A stretch of 64,000 nt of DNA. It comes from an uncultured Planctomycetota bacterium (GTDB lineage Bacteria > Planctomycetota > Planctomycetia > Isosphaerales > Isosphaeraceae). This document shows positions 1-7,963 of this stretch, one piece after another; within the stretch, counting starts at the first letter, position 1; each line of letters begins with the position of its first letter. The notes beneath the pieces are model-generated. The model was given only the letters and a program-made list of their open reading frames with translations, made no database searches and had not been told where the DNA came from. The stretch is taken from assembly GCA_963737655.1 (NCBI GenBank), contig CAVTTN010000002.1, positions 1,728,001-1,792,000 on the forward strand, written 5' to 3'. The position numbers were made by a program, and so were the translations under genes.

Positions 1-1
1 G

Positions 2-562
2 GTCGCCGCCTCGGCCCCGGCCCCGCCTCCCTCGCCGACCCCTCCGCCCCCGACGGCCGCCGCGCCCCGGGCCACGGTCCTGGTCCAGGTCCCGATCAGC
101 CACTACATCGACCGCTTCCAGAGGCTCCACCATCGCGACCCCTCGCCCGAGGACCTCCGGCCTTACGCGGCGAAGACCGAGGCGTCGATCCGGGCGACCG
201 TCGAGCAGGCGATCCCGGCGGAGTTCGCCTCGATCCTCAAGGTCGATCGCATCGACGACCCCGGGCCCGAGCGGCCGTCGGTGGCCCCGGCCGACGCCGA
301 GTCCCGGAGGGACCGGGCGTGGTGGCCGATCGCGGCCCTGGCCGCTTCGGCCGCCGCGGCGACGTTCGCGGCCGTGACCACCCGGAGGCTCCTGGGCCGA
401 CGGCCCGCGGTCGAGGCCGCCGCCCCGAGCCGGCCCTCGGCCTTCGAGGTCGGCGACTCCGCCGGGCCGGCCGAGAGGGTCCGCGAGCTCGTCCGGCTCG
501 ATCCCTCGGCCGCCTCGGGCGTCCTCCAGCGATGGATCGGGCGGGGAGGGACCGTCGGATGA
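2..562 (+). CDS. fliF: FliF-like MS-ring protein, C-terminal part (5' truncated by window)
   Basis: Open frame from base 2. It has a TM segment (WWPIAALAASAAAATFAAV) and ends ERVRELVRLDPSAASGVLQRWI, resembling the FliF C-terminal FliG-binding helix. Its stop overlaps the fliG-like start (ATGA). Confidence 0.6.
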   Translation, partial: VAASAPAPPPSPTPPPPTAAAPRATVLVQVPISHYIDRFQRLHHRDPSPEDLRPYAAKTEASIRATVEQAIPAEFASILKVDRIDDPGPERPSVAPADAESRRDRAWWPIAALAASAAAATFAAVTTRRLLGRRPAVEAAAPSRPSAFEVGDSAGPAERVRELVRLDPSAASGVLQRWIGRGGTVG

Positions 563-1125
563 CCCCCCGGACCGAACCCGCGCCCTCCTCGGCGATCCCC
601 TCGGCCTCGCCCCCGGCCGCCGAGACCGACCCCCTGCGGAAGGCGGCCATCCTGGTCGTCAGCCTGGAGCAGCCGCTGGCCTCGCAGCTCCTCGCGCACC
701 TGGACCGCTCGGCCGTCGAGGCGGTCACCCTGGAGATCGCCCGGCTCGATCGGATCGCCCCGGCCGAACAACGTGCCGTCCTTGAGGAGTTTTACGGCCT
801 GGGCCTCCGTCGGCTCCGATTTGTGTTCGACGACCTGGTGAGGCTGGACGATATAGATCTCAGGGAAGCGTTCCACGACGAGGACGCGCCGGCCTGGGCG
901 GTGGCCCTGGCCGGGGCCTCGTCTCCGGTCCGGGCCAAGGTCCTCTCGGCCCTGGCGCCCGGGTCGGCCGCCGCCCTGAGGCGGGCCCTGGACGGGATCG
1001 GGCCGTTCCGGCTCGACGACGCCGAGGCCGCCCAGGCCGAGCTGGCCGAGCGCTTCCGCCGGCTCCACGACCACGGCCGGATCACGCTACCAGACCCCGA
1101 CGGTCGGGAGGAGATCCTTGTCTGA
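559..1125 (+). CDS. fliG: Shortened FliG-like protein (FliG_N joined to FliG_C, no middle domain)
   Basis: LRKAAILVVSL (FliG N-terminus), then FVFDDLVRLDD...GPFRLDDAEAAQ (FliG_C); about 188 aa. Confidence 0.8.
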   Translation: MTPRTEPAPSSAIPSASPPAAETDPLRKAAILVVSLEQPLASQLLAHLDRSAVEAVTLEIARLDRIAPAEQRAVLEEFYGLGLRRLRFVFDDLVRLDDIDLREAFHDEDAPAWAVALAGASSPVRAKVLSALAPGSAAALRRALDGIGPFRLDDAEAAQAELAERFRRLHDHGRITLPDPDGREEILV

Positions 1126-1426
1126 CCTCGTCGATTTCGAAGACCTCGGGCAGCTCGACGGCGGCGACCTGAGGGCCGTGTTCGGCCAGGTGAGCCTCGA
1201 TCAGGTCCTCGCGGCCCTGATCGGGACCACCCCGGCCTTCCGCCAACAACTCCTGACGAAGCTCGCGCCGGCCTCCGCCGTCAAGCTGGAGAGCCGGGTC
1301 AAGACCCACGGCCCGGTGGCGTTCGCCACCGTCCAGGCCGCCCAGCGCGACCTGGTCGAGGCCCTCTGCCGCCTCAGCCGGGGCGGGCAGGTCGCCTTCG
1401 ACGACCCGGCCGACATGGTGGCCTGA
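1118..1426 (+). CDS. Stand-alone FliG C-terminal-domain protein
   Basis: VDFEDLGQLDGGDLRAVF...GPVAFATVQAAQRDLVEALCRL. TTG start with GGAGGAG RBS. Confidence 0.75.
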   Translation: MSDLVDFEDLGQLDGGDLRAVFGQVSLDQVLAALIGTTPAFRQQLLTKLAPASAVKLESRVKTHGPVAFATVQAAQRDLVEALCRLSRGGQVAFDDPADMVA

Positions 1427-1754
1427 CCGACCGCGACCCTCGGGCCGGCCTTCCGCCGCCCTCTCCCCCGCTTGCTTCGGGGGAGAGGGTCTACCAGGGC
1501 CTCACGACCACCCCTCCCCGGGGATCGTCCGGGGCCGTTTCCTCCTCGGTGGGCGATTCTTCCGAGGGGTTTGGGGCGGCACGGGTTCCGTCCTCGGAAT
1601 CCGTGCCGCCCCAAATGCTTCCGGCCGAGAACCTCTCGGAAAAGGAAACGGCCCCGGGGGATCGTCGAACCGCTCTGGACGCGCCCTCCGAATCGTGTAC
1701 CCTGACGCCGCCGGTCGTCCCGGAGGGCCTCGGGTGATGCGACAAGGAGCGTCG

Positions 1755-2234
1755 ATGCCGCGTACGATCTCGCGACTCGCGGCGGCCGTCTGCGTCTTTT
1801 CGACGAGCTGGGGCCTCGGCCCGGGCCCTCGGGCCTCGGCCGACGAGCCGGCGCCGACGGTCGCCCTGCCGAACCCCTCGCGCCATCCCACGTCGCGACC
1901 CGTCGGCGGGAAGCCGGGGGCCTCGACCGGCTCGGGCGGCTTCTGGCTCGGCTCGGCCGGGGTGGCGGTCGCGTTGGCGGCCTTCGGAGGACTCAGCCTG
2001 GCGACGAAGAAGCTCCGCCCCTCCGGCGGCGACTCCCCCACGCTCCGCGTGGTCGGCCGGGCCGGGTTGTCGCCGAAGCACAGCGTTTATCTCCTCCGGG
2101 TCGGCGATCGCGTCCTGATCGTCGGCGCCGGGGGCCAGGGGCCGCCGTCGCTCCTGGGCGAGATCACCGACTCGAACGCCCTCGGCCGGCTGATCCCCGA
2201 TCGCTCGCCCGGCGGGGCCGGAGGCTCGTCATGA
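1755..2234 (+). CDS. fliO: FliO/FliZ-family export chaperone
   Basis: TM helix, then LRVVGRAGLSPKHSVYLLRVGDRVLIVG. AAGGAG RBS; directly upstream of fliP. Confidence 0.8.
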   Translation: MPRTISRLAAAVCVFSTSWGLGPGPRASADEPAPTVALPNPSRHPTSRPVGGKPGASTGSGGFWLGSAGVAVALAAFGGLSLATKKLRPSGGDSPTLRVVGRAGLSPKHSVYLLRVGDRVLIVGAGGQGPPSLLGEITDSNALGRLIPDRSPGGAGGSS

Positions 2235-3073
2235 AACGCCCCGGCCTGGCCGTGGGGCTGGCCCTGGTCGCCGTCGTCCTGATCGCCGGGGCCGACTCGC
2301 CCCGGGACGGGGATCGCGACGGTGACGGCGGGAAGGTCGCCCTCTCGGACTTCTCCGACATCCGGATCCCGCCCAGGCCCGAGCCCGTCTCGGCGCCGAC
2401 GGCCGCCGTCCCCGCGCCTCCTCCGGTGGCCGCGTCGATCCAGACCGTCGTCCTGTTCGCGTTGATCTCGCTCGCCCCGGCCGCCGCGCTGATGGTCACG
2501 GCCTTTGTGAGGATCAGCGTCGTCCTGACGCTCCTCCGCCAGGCGCTGGGCAGCCCCCAGGTCCCGGGCAATCAGGTGTTGATGGCCGTGGCGCTGCTGC
2601 TGACGGCCCTGGTGATGCGCCCGGTCGCCGAATCGGTGTATGAACGGGGGATCAAGCCGTATTCCGAGGGCCGGCTCGAACCGATCCCGGCGTGGGAGGC
2701 CGGCACCGGCCCGATCAAGGATTTCATGATCGAACAGATCTGCCGGACCCACCACGAACGCTACCTCTGGGAGCTGTACGACCGCACCAATCCCCCGGCC
2801 GGCACCCCGGAGCCGACGGACTGCTCGCAGTTCTCGCTCGGGGTGGTCGCCCCGGCGTTCCTCCTCAGCGAGCTGACGACCGCCCTGTTCATCGGCTTCG
2901 CGATCTACTTGCCGTTCCTGGTGATCGACCTGGTGGTCTCGGCCGTGCTCTCGGCGATGGGCCTGTTCATGATGCCGCCGTCGCTCGTGGCGCTGCCCCT
3001 GAAGCTCATCCTCTTCGCCCTGGCCGACGGCTGGATGCTCGTCGCCGGGATGCTCTTGAGGAGCTTCCTGTAG
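2231..3073 (+). CDS. fliP: Export gate protein FliP (SctR family)
   Basis: MVTAFVRISVVLTLLRQALG...PGNQVL, PAFLLSEL, YLPFLVIDLVVSAVLSAMGLFMMPP, PLKLILFALADGW. Confidence 0.95.
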   Translation: MKRPGLAVGLALVAVVLIAGADSPRDGDRDGDGGKVALSDFSDIRIPPRPEPVSAPTAAVPAPPPVAASIQTVVLFALISLAPAAALMVTAFVRISVVLTLLRQALGSPQVPGNQVLMAVALLLTALVMRPVAESVYERGIKPYSEGRLEPIPAWEAGTGPIKDFMIEQICRTHHERYLWELYDRTNPPAGTPEPTDCSQFSLGVVAPAFLLSELTTALFIGFAIYLPFLVIDLVVSAVLSAMGLFMMPPSLVALPLKLILFALADGWMLVAGMLLRSFL

Positions 3074-3201
3074 GGTGCATGAAATGCACCAGTCTGGATT
3101 CTTTGGTTTTGCAAGATCTGCATCGGAAGGGCGGCCCGGGGCCGCCGGGTGCCTGGTGCATTTCATGCACCCTACATGACGGTGCATTTCATGCACCCTA
3201 C
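3070..3201. repeat. GTAG-type REP cluster, family A (GTAGGGTGCATGAAATGCACC), 3 copies
   Basis: Copies at 3070-3090 (+), 3155-3175 (-) and 3181-3201 (-). Each has an internal GGTGCAT/ATGCACC palindrome. Confidence 0.85.
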
Positions 3202-3210
3202 GGGGGATTC

Positions 3211-3471
3211 ATGGATACGGTCATCGACTGGTCGCGGGAAGCCGTCCGGATGGCCTTGCTTCTCGGCGGGCCGATCCTGCTGGCGGCGCTGGTGGTGGGC
3301 CTGGTGGTGGGCGTGGTCCAGGCCGTGACCCAGATGCATGAGCCGGTCGTCGGCCAGGTGCCCCGGCTGATCGCCGTGGCGGTGGTCGTGTTGCTGGCCC
3401 TGCCGTGGCTGATGGCGACGTGGGTCGGCTACGCGAGCGAGTTGATCGGCTCGATCCCGGACCGTCTCTGA
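3211..3471 (+). CDS. fliQ: Export gate protein FliQ (SctS family)
   Basis: 86 aa; LLLGGPILLAALVVGLVVGVVQAVTQMHE...VPRL; lies between fliP and fliR. Confidence 0.92.
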   Translation: MDTVIDWSREAVRMALLLGGPILLAALVVGLVVGVVQAVTQMHEPVVGQVPRLIAVAVVVLLALPWLMATWVGYASELIGSIPDRL

Positions 3472-3490
3472 GGCGAGGGAGCGTCTGCCG

Positions 3491-4264
3491 ATGGGCCGGA
3501 CCCTCGACTTCTTGCTGGCGATCGCGGCCGACCGCGCCGGCGATTACGCGCTGATCGCGGCGAGGGTGGGCGGCCTGGTGGCGACGGCGCCCGGGTTCGG
3601 CACGTCGGCCCTGGGCTGGCGGGTCCGCGTGGGCCTGGCGATCGTCTTGACGCTGGCCGTCGCCCCGGCCGTGGGGCCGATCGCCACCCGGCCGGCGGGC
3701 TTCGAGGCGATCGCCCGGCTCGCCCTCGGCGAATTCGGCCTGGGGGCGGCCCTGGGGATCATCGCGGGCCTGGTGATCGCCGGGGCGAGGCAGGCCGGAG
3801 ACCTCGTCGGGATGCAAGCCGGCCTCGCGCCGGCCAGCCTGATCGACCCCGAGGCCGGCGACGACCTGAACCCGCTGGGCCACCTGTACGGAGGCCTGGC
3901 CCTGGGCGTGTTCCTCGCGATGGACGGCCCGCTCGTCCTCGTCGGCTCGCTCGTCGAGAGCTACCGGGCGATGGGCGTCGGCGAGGTCGAGCTCTCGGCC
4001 GAGACGGTCGATCGGGCGTTCGCCCGGATCGGCTGGGGCCTGTCCCTGGCGATCCGGGCCGCCGCCCCGGCCGCCCTGGCGATGGCCATCGCCGGGGCCG
4101 CCCTCGGCCTGCTCGGCCGGGCGGCGCCGTCTCTGGGCCTGATCAGCCTGAGCATGCCGGCGAGGATCGCCCTCGGCCTGGTCCTGGCGATGATGGGCCT
4201 GGCGGCCCTCGCCGGGGTGTTCGAATCCGCGTGGATGGACGCCCTGCGGTTCGGGACCGGATAG
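3491..4264 (+). CDS. fliR: Export gate protein FliR (SctT family)
   Basis: ARVGGLVATAPGFG, GEFGLG...AGDLVGMQAGL, FLAMDG...LVESY. Confidence 0.9.
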   Translation: MGRTLDFLLAIAADRAGDYALIAARVGGLVATAPGFGTSALGWRVRVGLAIVLTLAVAPAVGPIATRPAGFEAIARLALGEFGLGAALGIIAGLVIAGARQAGDLVGMQAGLAPASLIDPEAGDDLNPLGHLYGGLALGVFLAMDGPLVLVGSLVESYRAMGVGEVELSAETVDRAFARIGWGLSLAIRAAAPAALAMAIAGAALGLLGRAAPSLGLISLSMPARIALGLVLAMMGLAALAGVFESAWMDALRFGTG

Positions 4265-4294
4265 GGCGGTTTTCGATGGCTTTCGATGGCTTTC

Positions 4295-4363
4295 GTAGGG
4301 TCCGCTCTTGCGGACCTCCCGGCGGCTTCTCGGATCGAAGAGGTCCGCATTAGCGGACCCTAC
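4295..4363. repeat. GTAG-type REP doublet, family B (GTAGGGTCCGCTCTTGCGGACC)
   Basis: Inverted pair at 4295-4316 and 4342-4363. Confidence 0.8.
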
Positions 4364-4398
4364 AAAAACCTTGGCCAACCGTCCTGAGAGGAGCCGCC

Positions 4399-5463
4399 AT
4401 GTCCGAAGACCGGACCCAGGCGCCTTCGGCCCGCCGTCGGCAGGAAGCCCGGGAGATGGGCGTGGTCGCCCGGAGCTCGGAGCTGACCGCCGCCGTGGGG
4501 CTGCTCGCGGCCGTGGCCTTGCTCGGGGCGTTCGGCGAATCGCTCGGCTCGGGCCTCGTCAACCTCGTCCGAGGCCCGTTCGTCGAGGGATCGATCCCTC
4601 CGTCCGACCCGTCGGCCGTCGTGGCGAGCGTCCGAGCGGCATCGGGGAAGGTCTTCGGCCCCCTGATCGGCCTCCTCGGCGGGACCGTCCTGGCGATGGT
4701 CGCGGCCCATCAGGCGCAGGTCGGCGGGATCTTCACGCCGGGCCGCCTCGCCCCGGACTTCACCCGGCTGATGCCCTCCTCCGACGGCGGCTTCCTCGCC
4801 CGAGGGGGTCGCGGCCTCTGGGGCCTGGCCAAGGCGGTCGTCGTCGTGGCCGTGGCGGCGTGGGCGATCCGGTCGCGAGGCCCCGAGCTCGCCCGCCTCG
4901 GCCATCTCGACCCGCCCGCCCTGATCTCGGCCGCCGGATCGATCGTCCGAAGCCTGTTCTTCGCGCTGGGGGTCGCCACGCTGGCCCTGGGCCTGATCGA
5001 CCTGGCGATCCAGAGGGCGAGGGTCGAGGCCCTCCTGCGGACGACCCCTCAGGAGCAGCGCGAGGACCAGAAAGCCATCGACGGCGACCCCGCCGTGAAG
5101 GCCCGCCGCCACCGCCTGGCGAAATCCTGGAGGAGCGACCCGGGGGAGATCCTCGCCGGGGCGTCGCTGGTCCTGACCGGCCCGGGGAACCTCGCCGTGG
5201 TCCTCGCCGGAGGTCCCCCGCCGGGCCGGATCACCGTCCGGGGCTCGGCCCGGGGAGGCTCGGGCGCGACCCTCGCCAAAGCGGCGAAAAAGGCCGGGAT
5301 CGGCACGATCGACGCCCCCGGGCTCGCCCGCCACTTCGCCCGAGGCGCCTCGGCCGGGCCGGCCCTGCCTCCCGAACTCGACGCCGAACTCACCCGGCTG
5401 TGGGTTCGCCGGGCCTCGGAGGGGCCGCCGAGGAGTCCAGCCGTGGCTCCGGATCGTCTCTAG
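4399..5463 (+). CDS. flhB: FlhB/EscU/YscU export switch protein, divergent
   Basis: MSEDRTQAPSARRRQEAREMGVVARSSEL N-terminus; TPQEQREDQKAIDGDPAVKARR; the NPTH position reads GPGN. Confidence 0.9.
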   Translation: MSEDRTQAPSARRRQEAREMGVVARSSELTAAVGLLAAVALLGAFGESLGSGLVNLVRGPFVEGSIPPSDPSAVVASVRAASGKVFGPLIGLLGGTVLAMVAAHQAQVGGIFTPGRLAPDFTRLMPSSDGGFLARGGRGLWGLAKAVVVVAVAAWAIRSRGPELARLGHLDPPALISAAGSIVRSLFFALGVATLALGLIDLAIQRARVEALLRTTPQEQREDQKAIDGDPAVKARRHRLAKSWRSDPGEILAGASLVLTGPGNLAVVLAGGPPPGRITVRGSARGGSGATLAKAAKKAGIGTIDAPGLARHFARGASAGPALPPELDAELTRLWVRRASEGPPRSPAVAPDRL

Positions 5464-5483
5464 CGGGGTCGAGGGCGGTTCCT

Positions 5484-5567
5484 GTAGGTTCCGCTCTTGC
5501 GGACCTCTTCGATTCGATGAGCTGCCATGAGAGGAGATGCGAAGAGGTCCGCAAGGGCGGACCCCAC
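5484..5567. repeat. REP doublet, family B
   Basis: GTAGGTTCCGCTCTTGCGGACC at 5484-5505 and an inverted copy at 5546-5567. Confidence 0.8.
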
Positions 5568-5589
5568 AAGAACCGCTGAGAGAGCCACG

Positions 5590-6076: not shown

Positions 6077-6412
6077 ATGGCTTCGGCGACCACCCCGCAG
6101 ATCCGCCTGGACGACCGGGGCCGGGCGGTGATCGACGACACCCGCATGAAGGTGAAGATGCTGGTGCTCTCCCGGATCGCCCACGGCTGGGGGATCGACG
6201 AGTTGCAGACTCAATATCCCCACCTCTCCCGAGAGCAGGTCGAGGCGGCCCTGGTCTACTACGACGCCCATCGCGCCGAGATGGACGCCGAGATCGAACG
6301 GGAATATCGGGAGGTGCAGGAGCTGCGGGCCCGGCAATCCCCGAAACAGCCGACGCGGGAGGAACTGGTCGCCAGGTTGGAGGCGATGCGGGCCTCGGGC
6401 AAGCGGCCGTGA
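6077..6412 (+). CDS. DUF433-family antitoxin
   Basis: GRAVIDDTRMKV...GWGIDELQTQYPHLSREQVEAALVYY. Confidence 0.85.
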   Translation: MASATTPQIRLDDRGRAVIDDTRMKVKMLVLSRIAHGWGIDELQTQYPHLSREQVEAALVYYDAHRAEMDAEIEREYREVQELRARQSPKQPTREELVARLEAMRASGKRP

Positions 6413-6756
6413 GCGTGGCCTTCTACCTCGATCACAACGTCGATCGCGCCGTGGCCGAGGGGTTGCGACTCCGGGGGGTGGACGTCCTGACCGCCCTGGA
6501 GGATGGGACCACGACCCTGGCCGACCCGGACCTCCTGGATCGCGCCTCCGCCCTCGGTCGGGTCATCGTGACCCATGACCAGGACTTTCTCCGGGAAGGT
6601 CCGGCTCGTCAGCGAACGGGCCGGACCTTCGCCGGCATCCTGTACGCGCACCAGCTCGACGTCTCGCTTGGCCGACTGATCGACGACCTCGAATTGATCG
6701 CGCAGGCCCAATCGCCCGAAGATTACGCGGGTCGAGTCCGCTACTTGCCTCTGTGA
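6409..6756 (+). CDS. DUF5615 PIN-like toxin
   Basis: FYLDHNV...LRLRGVDV...DPDLLDRA...[13 protein letters not shown] overlap with the antitoxin. Confidence 0.85.
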
Positions 6757-6799: not shown

Positions 6800-7963
6800 T
6801 CACGGGGTGAGCGACCCCGCCGGGAACATGGTTCCGATTCGGGGGCAGTTCTCGTCGAGCAGCGCGTCGATGTTCGCGAGCTCCAGCGACTTGCCGTAGG
6901 CCCGGAGCTTGTCGCGGGTGATGTCGCGGACGAACGGGATGTTCGAGACCGCCTGGAGCTTGATCCACCCGGTCAGCCAGCCCTGCTCGAAACTCTTTTG
7001 CAGGGGGTCCTTTTCGACGTTCGGCAGGTCGGCGATCCGCACGACGTCCACATTTTTCAGCAGGACCGGGGCGTCCTTGTCTACGTCCTTGGCGGTCAGG
7101 ACCAGGGTCTTGTCCACGACCTGGGCCGGGTCGAAGCTGGCGTCGAAGGTGTCGTCGTCGGTGTCCACCGCCGTCCTCCAGGCCTCGATCTGCTGGGCGA
7201 CGACGAGCATCTCCTGCATGACCCGCTCGTTGATGGCGTTCTGCCACTGCAAGGGGTTGGCGGGGATGGCCTTGATGGACGCCGGGCGCAGGGTCGCGCC
7301 GGCGGGGCCTCGGACCGCGAACTTGGACAGGTCCTTGATCCCGTCGATCAGGAAGATGGCCTTCGCGCCCTTCATGTCCGCGTCGCTGGTCCCGAGCTTC
7401 CTCATGGCGTTGCCGACCGTCGAGCCGGCCAGGGCGCCGACGCCCCCGCCGATGAACGCCAGGGCCAGCCCCAGCAGCATGTCCTCGGCGAGCTTGACCG
7501 TGGCGTCGATGTCCTTCAGGACCTTGTTGTGCGCCTCGAACGCGTTGCCGTAGGCGAGGGAGATGCTGCTGAGCCATCCGCTGATGTGGATCTGGGCGAT
7601 CTGCACCTTGGCCACGGCGGTGTTGCACCGGGCGACGAACTGGGCCTTGGCCTCCGCCGTGCGGACGAAGAGGACCTGGGCGCCGATCTTCCGGGCCTCG
7701 GCCTTCAGGTCGAACGTCCCGGCCTGCATGTGCGCCTTGCCGGTCGCGCCGTGGGGGTCCAGGGGCACGTTCCATTCTTCCCACGTCTTGGACCCGGTCC
7801 ACCGGGTGACCAGCTTCCCGTTGTCGATCTTCCAGGAGCCGGCGCCGGTCATCCCGTTGAGCGGGTCGCTCCAGTTCACGGCCCCCTGCGCGGTGAAGTT
7901 GTAGATCCAGTTCCATTGCTGGACGTGGACGTTCCAGCTGGAATCCGTCATGGTTTGCAGCAC
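6800..7963 (-). CDS. Hypothetical protein with Trp-rich N-terminal domain and central Gly-rich hydrophobic segment
   Basis: 387-aa ORF with coding-like codon bias and GGGGAGG RBS; no family recognised. Confidence 0.75.
   Translation of the reverse strand: MLQTMTDSSWNVHVQQWNWIYNFTAQGAVNWSDPLNGMTGAGSWKIDNGKLVTRWTGSKTWEEWNVPLDPHGATGKAHMQAGTFDLKAEARKIGAQVLFVRTAEAKAQFVARCNTAVAKVQIAQIHISGWLSSISLAYGNAFEAHNKVLKDIDATVKLAEDMLLGLALAFIGGGVGALAGSTVGNAMRKLGTSDADMKGAKAIFLIDGIKDLSKFAVRGPAGATLRPASIKAIPANPLQWQNAINERVMQEMLVVAQQIEAWRTAVDTDDDTFDASFDPAQVVDKTLVLTAKDVDKDAPVLLKNVDVVRIADLPNVEKDPLQKSFEQGWLTGWIKLQAVSNIPFVRDITRDKLRAYGKSLELANIDALLDENCPRIGTMFPAGSLTP

Follow-up and report, generated by a model that had tools for sequence, protein, structure and literature searches.

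The window analysed here is a 64,000-nucleotide stretch of the genome of an uncultured planctomycete of the family Isosphaeraceae (positions 1,728,001 to 1,792,000 of contig CAVTTN010000002.1 in assembly GCA_963737655.1; G000:C2:1728001-1792000 in our numbering). It opens with a cluster of flagellar export genes in a lineage that appears to have lost its flagellum. On balance, we consider it probable that the membrane core of the ancestral flagellum of planctomycetes survives in this cluster as a structure-less checkpoint for export, which would remove the anti-sigma factor FlgM and thereby activate sigma-28 (FliA). Since the flagellum was lost but the gate, sigma-28 and FlgM were kept, the gate most likely exports FlgM and so switches genes on; the retained circuit would thus name the likely substrate and suggest a regulatory function rather than the delivery of an unspecified cargo. 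The retention of export genes after the loss of swimming and the re-use of a flagellar sigma factor (WhiG) are already known from the papers cited below. What is new, judging from the genomes compared here, is a retained FlgM/sigma-28 regulatory circuit beside a flagellum-less gate, family-wide and under selection.

An export gate without a flagellum

All genes of the cluster lie on the plus strand. The 3' half of fliF (1..562, frame 2-562), encoding the end of ring-building motif 3 (RBM3), the second membrane helix and the C-terminal helices of the MS-ring protein, is followed by fliG1 (559..1125; 188 aa, FliG_N at E 5.7e-14 and FliG_C at E 9.5e-21, no middle domain), fliG2 (1118..1426; 102 aa, consisting of another FliG C-terminal domain by itself, E 3.7e-13), fliO (1755..2234, possibly starting at 1736), the gate genes fliP (2231..3073), fliQ (3211..3471) and fliR (3491..4264), and flhB (4399..5463; 354 aa), whose membrane part is intact and whose cytoplasmic domain is predicted to fold. 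FliO matched TIGR03500 below its cut-off (E 3e-9) and a profile from flagellated planctomycetes (E 1.8e-8). A first-pass annotation, made from the letters of the window alone, had read the same arrangement here, namely the end of fliF, two odd fliG-like genes and fliOPQR-flhB. It was also right that flhA does not follow flhB in the window, but the gene is not missing: an intact copy (709 aa, E 1e-232) lies about 4 Mb away on the minus strand (C2:5750857-5752986), within a second cluster, flhA-flhF-flhG-fliA (C2:5747565-5752986), and in several relatives (G049, G071, G057, G013 and G014 among them) flhA comes directly or closely after flhB. The best NCBIfam match of each of FliP, FliQ and FliR and of both FlhB and FlhA was the flagellar model, below its curated cut-off in every case, and in a comparison with SctRSTUV the flagellar models outscored the Sct models for all five. 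At G075:C2:357600-358637 and in seven other f3 genomes there is an additional gene, in frames of about 510 aa, whose match to FlhA (29-35% identity) is confined to the cytoplasmic half.

Across 74 Isosphaeraceae genomes of at least 85% completeness, representing 35 genera, FliP was found in 73 and FlhA in 72, and FliP in all 47 of the best assemblies, whereas flagellin was found in none of the 74. In G000 (7.63 Mb in 3 contigs, 87.7% complete by markers), tblastn searches with 62 flagellar-cluster proteins of two flagellated planctomycetes, together with profiles built from the loci, found no filament genes (flagellin, FlgK/L, FliD), no rod, hook or L-ring genes, no FlgB-H or FlgJ, and no FliE, FliH, FliJ, FliK, FliL, FliM, FliN or MotB. 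Every other known class of export substrate was absent from G000 by the same searches, which supports FlgM as the cargo. FliE and FliH were found in none of four family genomes and were both detected in the flagellated control. Neither FliI, whose matches were ATP synthase and Rho-like proteins, nor the ATPase SctN (TIGR01026) exceeded its cut-off in any of five genomes, and MotA gave only weak, TolQ-like matches (3 of 4 genomes, E 2e-4 or worse). The two gate clusters contain no secretin SctC, SctD or needle SctF, for which no genome-wide search was run. The first-pass annotation had itself named a complete rod, hook, filament and stator set elsewhere in the genome as evidence that would speak against it; none was found, and across the family a rod motif appeared as short matches in only 3 of 74 genomes, G012 (L035, L038), G037 (L036) and G047 (L037). 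G012 is also the single family genome without FliP, and these rod-motif matches may reflect contamination or chance. G000:C2:88800-90617 (L227) encodes a 605-aa protein that resembles FlgI (P-ring) and contains HEAT repeats; a COG1706 gene, Plim_1168, appears in the essential-gene figure of a Planctopirus limnophila study (PMC10632474).

By the features tested, then, the system is neither a flagellum nor an injectisome. The annotation had gone further and proposed a machine separate from flagella. This part does not hold, because the family FliP sequences form one long-branch group (support 99) nested inside the native planctomycete flagellar clade. In this quick tree of 75 rows, in which the long branches of G110b and G172 are uncertain, the native clade comprises 52 rows (support 86), compared with 22 rows (support 96) of a compact second system. 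That described Isosphaeraceae are non-flagellated agrees with the sections cited here of PMC5352709, which report no swarmer cells and few flagellar genes.

Remodelling under purifying selection

Ratios of non-synonymous to synonymous substitution rates (dN/dS) were obtained by a simple counting method from up to 11 within-genus pairs, in GC-rich DNA in which dS is underestimated and without housekeeping genes as controls. They were below one for all core genes: 0.00-0.07 for FliA, 0.06-0.26 for FlhA, 0.08-0.27 for FliG1 (one pair saturated), 0.08-0.36 for FlhF, 0.01-0.38 for FliQ, 0.13-0.46 for FliR, 0.08-0.50 for FlhB, 0.12-0.55 for FliP and 0.21-0.81 for FliF. Some ends that were unaligned or non-coding entered the comparisons of FliO and FliP, and in genomes without fliG2 the rows for FliG2 scored FliG1 instead. 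By these ratios the gate and ring genes are under purifying selection across the family, remodelled and not decaying, in line with the earlier claim that gate and ring had been kept. Neutral decay, with ratios near one and patchy loss, was the other finding that the annotation had named against itself, and it is not what we see. That the cluster is the neutral remnant of a flagellum since lost, or belongs to a complete one that incomplete assembly has hidden, could be suspected from the incompleteness and frameshifts of G000 and from the fast evolution of FliF. We nevertheless consider it extremely improbable, as it is already contradicted by the FliP counts over 35 genera, by the flagellin counts and by the low ratios of FlhA and FliG1, and planctomycetes of family f5 drop FliP and FlhA together when the flagellum is lost.

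The annotation had further claimed that motor and switch features were eroded, and in addition to the missing ATPase, stator, FliE and FliH, this is borne out by FlhB and FliG. In the FlhB of the window, GPGN replaces the NPTH self-cleavage site; the cleavage Asn is a Gly (G261) in 25 of 25 family sequences, none of which has NP[TE]. The cytoplasmic domain carries a family-specific, near-invariant GGPPP loop and is modelled as folded, with predicted local distance difference test (pLDDT) values of 76-95 per block; a fold search with it gave no match at E<=0.001, and its top 13 rows were all FlhB/SctU structures (E 0.006-0.07). In FliG1, which is 65-78% identical between genera, the N-terminal helices are joined straight to the C-terminal domain and the entire middle domain is deleted, which matches the loss of FliM. 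At the FliG torque-helix charges, KR and DE of Thermotoga maritima stand against PG and RA; this is weak evidence, because the fliH-adjacent fliG of flagellated G088 and G080 departs too, although that of G116 and G152 does not.

Other parts have been kept. FlhA retains the residues aligned to Salmonella positions 94, 203, 208 and 249, of which the first, second and last are functionally important. The role of Asp-208 is described in the sections cited of PMC9751260. The methionine loop of FliP is kept as FMM versus MMM. The intact FliF orthologue of G047 yields a model that matches FliF and keeps the ring-building folds, with a low-confidence stretch without strands at about 274-320, presumably the site of the rod-holding collar. 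FlhG turned up in 8 of the 23 genomes with flhF in their loci, some of which are incomplete.

The FlgM and sigma-28 circuit

FlgM was found above the Pfam cut-off in 73 of the 74 family genomes, in G000 at C2:3348435-3348719, and its profile matches the solved FlgM chains 9wsf and, weakly, 1rp3; a FlgM query against named genomes returned 22 loci, none from Isosphaeraceae. FliA exceeds the cut-off of TIGR02479 with 270 bits, is 82-97% identical within the family and is present at 68% or more in all 131 Planctomycetia genomes examined. The genes fliW and csrA are retained as neighbours (G000:C2:5250439-5251412, L224), with at least three further csrA copies; fliW has persisted despite the loss of flagellin, the usual partner of FliW.

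A motif of the form T[AC]AA-N16/17-N[CT]CGAT precedes flgM in 21 of 22 loci, the set that defined it, and in a held-out comparison a motif of this type precedes fliA in 19 of 20 loci. With windows of 480 bases for held-out genes and 330 bases for the background, it occurs before 59 of 6001 G000 genes, and before fliF, flhA and flhB in 0 of 27, 0 of 26 and 0 of 26 loci. The family motif is close to the flagellar consensus TAAA/GCCGATAA given in the sections cited of PMC8325347, and we regard these sites as predicted promoters. An initial position matrix for the sigma-28 promoter was abandoned in favour of the fixed pattern and conservation tests, having returned 26 sites at score 17 compared with 1-14 for shuffled matrices. 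Two further genes are candidate new members of the sigma-28 regulon: lpxA (G000 C2:357869-358690), with the motif in G000 and three of five relatives, and a MotA/TolQ/ExbB-family gene of 409 aa (G000:C2:2006702-2007931, L220), with the motif in G000 and four of five. An RpoD-like sigma factor and cysE were rejected, as the motif before each was kept in 0 of 5 relatives.

A model of the FliA-FlgM complex scored 0.68 against 0.00 for the best control and placed the contacts in FlgM residues 43-91 only; the mark it passed is reached by 116 of 157 solved and by 2 of 215 mismatched pairs. The runs of the FliA-FlgM model share at least 74% of contacts, and the partner pLDDT is at least 63. Since sigma-28/FlgM complexes have already been solved, the pass may reflect likeness to them. 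Across 22 family members, identity in FlgM residues 1-22 is 80%, matching that of residues 36-94, and it is 26% to two flagellated outsiders. This conservation of a segment outside the predicted sigma-28 contacts implies that the FlgM N-terminus may well have a second, family-specific partner.

Distribution of the gate and of FlgM in Planctomycetia

FliP and FlhA are present in 108 of the 131 Planctomycetia genomes, flagellin in 67. By the FliP tree where sampled, and otherwise by an FlhA score of at least 541 bits, 88 genomes have the native gate; 20 have only the compact system and 23 have no FliP. Full-length FlgM, defined as a profile match starting at position 8 or earlier with at least 54 bits, is found in 86 of the 88 native-gate genomes, in none of the 20 compact-only genomes and in none of the 23 without FliP. 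Three of these 23 have flagellin and may be assembly gaps; the other 20 have a C-terminal-only FlgM match in 18 cases and none in two, and in G138 and G168 the FlgM reading frame opens shortly ahead of the C-terminal helices. Within families f4, f5 and f14 the contrast between gate classes is seen again, and in G092 and G098 a compact flagellum is accompanied by a native FliP on a long branch and by full-length FlgM. Outside the Isosphaeraceae, 11 flagellin-less genomes retain FliP, a count that leaves out G139 (FliP, no flagellin match) because a full hook and motor operon is present there. These 11 occupy at least five places on the FliP tree, and all have a native gate and full-length FlgM; their FlhB lacks the C-terminal domain in nine and the NPT motif in two.

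A gate that exports nothing could still serve as a landmark or scaffold in the membrane, in which FlhF, FliF, FliG and FlhA mark a pole or hold FlgM for sequestration or proteolysis. FliG1, FlhF and FlhA are indeed better conserved than FlhB and the periplasmic part of FliF, and FlhB resembles a cleavage-dead mutant that in Salmonella blocks FlgM export (PMC13344023, sections cited). We nonetheless think this reading rather unlikely, since it leaves unexplained why five pore and engine subunits and FliO are kept with dN/dS below one, including the charged residues of FlhA and the methionine loop of FliP, why FlhG and FliG2 are patchy, and why nine outside genomes dropped the FlhB domain entirely.

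Somewhat less unlikely, in our estimate, is a gate that exports other proteins to the periplasm or surface, with FlgM and sigma-28 kept separately or as a secondary load. The gate residues are intact, the new invariant positions of the FlhB cytoplasmic domain could dock a new cargo, and flagellum-less Lysobacter (PMC7277350) and Buchnera (PMC3459982) keep working or proposed export systems according to the sections cited. In 61 of the 74 family genomes, moreover, an SctQ-like domain is preceded by a FliG/SctK-like gene that is closest to chlamydial clusters. This pair (FliG/SctK-like, about 300 aa; SctQ-like, about 390-430 aa; G049 L104:10516-12565, G032 L080:1492-3182, G063 L103) lies away from the gate, however, is cleanly absent from G000 at the corresponding site (C2:2951689-2951769) and was not found in 12 other family genomes. 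Nor does the cluster contain a conserved candidate substrate gene, its sole conserved neighbour encoding a 213-aa protein with a Sec-like leader; ATPase, FliH and FliJ were not found, and the link between the FlgM N-terminus and the presence of the gate would be left unexplained.

Organization of the locus

The first-pass annotation described all frames as intact, which is correct from fliG1 to flhB and incorrect for fliF. Its 5' half, upstream of the window (G000:C2:1727082-1727987), is read in a different frame from the 3' half: relative to the single 484-aa FliF of G047, residues 1-274 are in one frame and 321-477 in another, and the break lies no more than about 100 bases from where the window begins. 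Because fliF is one reading frame in the other 26 of 27 loci, and because ATP-synthase genes are split in G000 too, a sequencing or assembly error is likely (the split genes, ATP-synthase and glycosyltransferase-like, lie at C2:1403796-1405023, 3421434-3425456 and 2951769-2953192).

The annotation had also drawn attention to some 330 bp between fliG and fliO, where flagellar operons normally carry other genes. We measured 328 bp. As judged from the repeat it holds and from the relatives, this gap is an insertion and not the scar of lost genes, because a dispersed intergenic repeat fills it (1530..1670; 60 blastn matches in G000, itself included) and because fliG2 abuts or overlaps the fliO frame in G032, G063 and G013. 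Palindromic intergenic repeats also lie at 3124..3206 (348 matches) and 4288..4370 (71 matches); altogether, at least three families of such repeats, with 60-348 matches in G000, break up the operon (window 1530-1670, 3124-3206, 4288-4370 and 5464-5576).

FliG1 has 919 relatives at E<=1e-10, with lengths of 103-329 aa; the best 120 of these are 69-87% identical and include an Isosphaeraceae bacterium and Singulisphaera sp., in keeping with the family assignment. Of 27 family loci, 13 have a separate fliG2, as does G087, of another family, where a fusion of FliF with the FliG C-terminal domain is followed by a 102-aa FliG2 with a C-terminal end as in the window (L060:9871-11830). The conserved 213-aa neighbour (G000:C2:1725971-1726612, L001:13971-14612) is a planctomycete-only protein that matched no known family and has a hydrophobic leader resembling a Sec signal; its gene lies upstream of fliF in 18 of 19 genomes with a match and is preceded by a sigma-28 motif in 3 of 19. 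Downstream of the gate cluster, a DUF433 and DUF5615/PIN-like pair (window 6077-6756), likely a toxin-antitoxin module, is followed by a 387-aa gene without family match on the minus strand (6800-7963).

Discussion

While the genes described above are observed, how their products would work together has to be read from flagella. FliF, held by the shortened FliG, would house the FliPQR-FlhB gate, with FliO helping in its assembly, and FlhA, encoded elsewhere, would power export from the ion gradient without the FliI ATPase, consistent with its charged residues. The cleavage switch of FlhB has been abolished, there being no rod, hook or ruler to count. From the co-retention of FlgM and the gate we infer that FlgM is the cargo, exported through the gate to the periplasm by way of its conserved N-terminus. 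Its loss would free sigma-28 for transcription of fliA and flgM and of genes unrelated to flagella, among them lpxA and the MotA/TolQ-family gene, in keeping with the motifs before them. More speculatively, FlhF, together with FlhG in genomes that have it, would confine the machine to a single site, and sigma-28 might thereby be on in one cell or stage of the budding cycle.

Such a device has precedents in its parts. The flagellar FlgM checkpoint of Salmonella and Bacillus subtilis shares FliF, FliG, FliO, FliPQR, FlhB, FlhA, FlhF, FlhG, FliA, FlgM, FliW and CsrA with the family, as well as sigma-28-type motifs before flgM and fliA. Unlike it, the family is without rod, hook, filament, stator, FliE, FliH/I/J, FliK and FliL/M/N, and with its uncleavable FlhB and a FliG lacking the middle domain it has no structure to report on. 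According to Calvo and Kearns in 2015, the minimal set for FlgM secretion is reportedly FliF, FliG, FliOPQR, FlhAB and FliK. Export of FlgM normally follows the FlhB switch and releases its sigma factor, and in B. subtilis FlgM secretion needs FliF (both in the sections cited of PMC4526659); type III export is able to run without the ATPase (PMC4230889, sections cited). In Salmonella lacking the cleaved FlhB domain and Fluke, FlgM fusions reach the periplasm without rod, hook or FliK (PMC13344023, sections cited). An equivalent FlhB truncation is what nine of the 11 flagellin-less outside planctomycetes carry, whereas the window FlhB keeps a remodelled domain and looks nearer to the switch-dead N269A allele, and those mutants are laboratory strains.

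Several observations weigh against an FlgM checkpoint. The Isosphaeraceae FlhB is predicted to be uncleavable with a folded C-terminal domain, like Salmonella FlhB N269A, an allele that cannot switch to FlgM export, and the domain-less Salmonella gate required raised flagellar gene expression (both in the sections cited of PMC13344023). A checkpoint would therefore need a remodelled domain able to pass FlgM. The presence of sigma-28 in all 131 genomes, including all 23 without FliP, means that this factor can work without the gate. In P. limnophila, the essential-gene figure of the transposon study contains one COG1191 sigma factor, Plim_1142, a putative sigma-28 orthologue with an insertion index of 0.0013, and no COG1298, COG1338 or COG2747 gene (PMC10632474); with COG1298 and COG1338 missing from that figure, the gate looks dispensable in that species in culture. 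The association of FlgM with the gate also has exceptions: the threshold dropped weak full-span FlgM matches (30-38 bits) in compact-only G083, G079 and G150, and native G078 and G101 have C-terminal-only matches. The FlgM mismatch at the N-terminus partly reflects distance, because the profile was built from eight family members and two native flagellated genomes and favours the native type, and the class counts overstate the number of independent events because genomes are related. Finally, the sigma-28-type motif was not found upstream of flgM in either of two flagellated outsiders, and the SctK/SctQ-like pair is left unaccounted for.

The six export genes, fliO, fliP, fliQ and fliR with flhB and flhA, are also those of CORE, the platform of B. 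subtilis nanotubes, and the CORE paper names flagellum-poor bacteria that retain them (PMC6456723, sections cited). We consider a nanotube platform improbable here: CORE operates in cells with a full flagellum, and nanotubes do not require fliF, yet FliF, FliG, FlhF and full-length FlgM are co-retained in the family; the name Isosphaera does not occur in the CORE paper. Flagellar export genes also outlast swimming in Lysobacter enzymogenes OH11 (PMC7277350) and Buchnera (PMC3459982). Export genes kept after the loss of swimming are likewise reported from Myxococcales (PMC3459982) and documented in a FliO survey, in the sections cited. Lysobacter keeps the FliI ATPase, however, and Buchnera the basal body, whereas the family has neither ATPase nor rod and retains its genes family-wide; in the sections cited, neither account ties retention to FlgM. 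WhiG of Actinobacteria resembles the planctomycete factor as a flagellar-clade sigma that uses TAAA/GCCGATAA promoters in non-flagellar development, but it is held by the c-di-GMP-dependent RsiG (PMC8325347, sections cited), whereas the family keeps the original anti-sigma factor FlgM together with an export gate. Flagellar genes of Isosphaeraceae have been treated as a 'poor representation' of flagellar assembly (Ivanova et al., PMC5352709, sections cited). The literature searched, outside which most subscription papers lie, contained nothing on retained export or FlgM genes in planctomycetes, and the main text of recent flagellar surveys has no occurrence of 'planctomyc', although their supplements may list these genomes.

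More tentatively, and with less confidence than we place in the checkpoint itself, the class-wide pattern may mean that sigma-28 is a class-wide, possibly essential regulator in Planctomycetia. Several lineages would then have independently cut the flagellum down to an FlgM-only secretion machine, which at one cellular site activates sigma-28 in a single cell or stage of budding without FtsZ, and gate-less lineages would have cut off the FlgM export signal and control FlgM otherwise. If the checkpoint reading is true, these bacteria harbour a natural minimal type III secretion system that lacks ATPase, rod and switch but has a cargo that can be named and a read-out of its own, which would be useful for testing what a gate needs for substrate choice and energy. 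It would also reveal a path to flagellar loss, followed several times, whereby a regulatory checkpoint persists after the structure that it monitored is gone. Sigma-28 would then be a candidate life-cycle regulator in budding planctomycetes, with the promoters and genes identified here as targets for its study.

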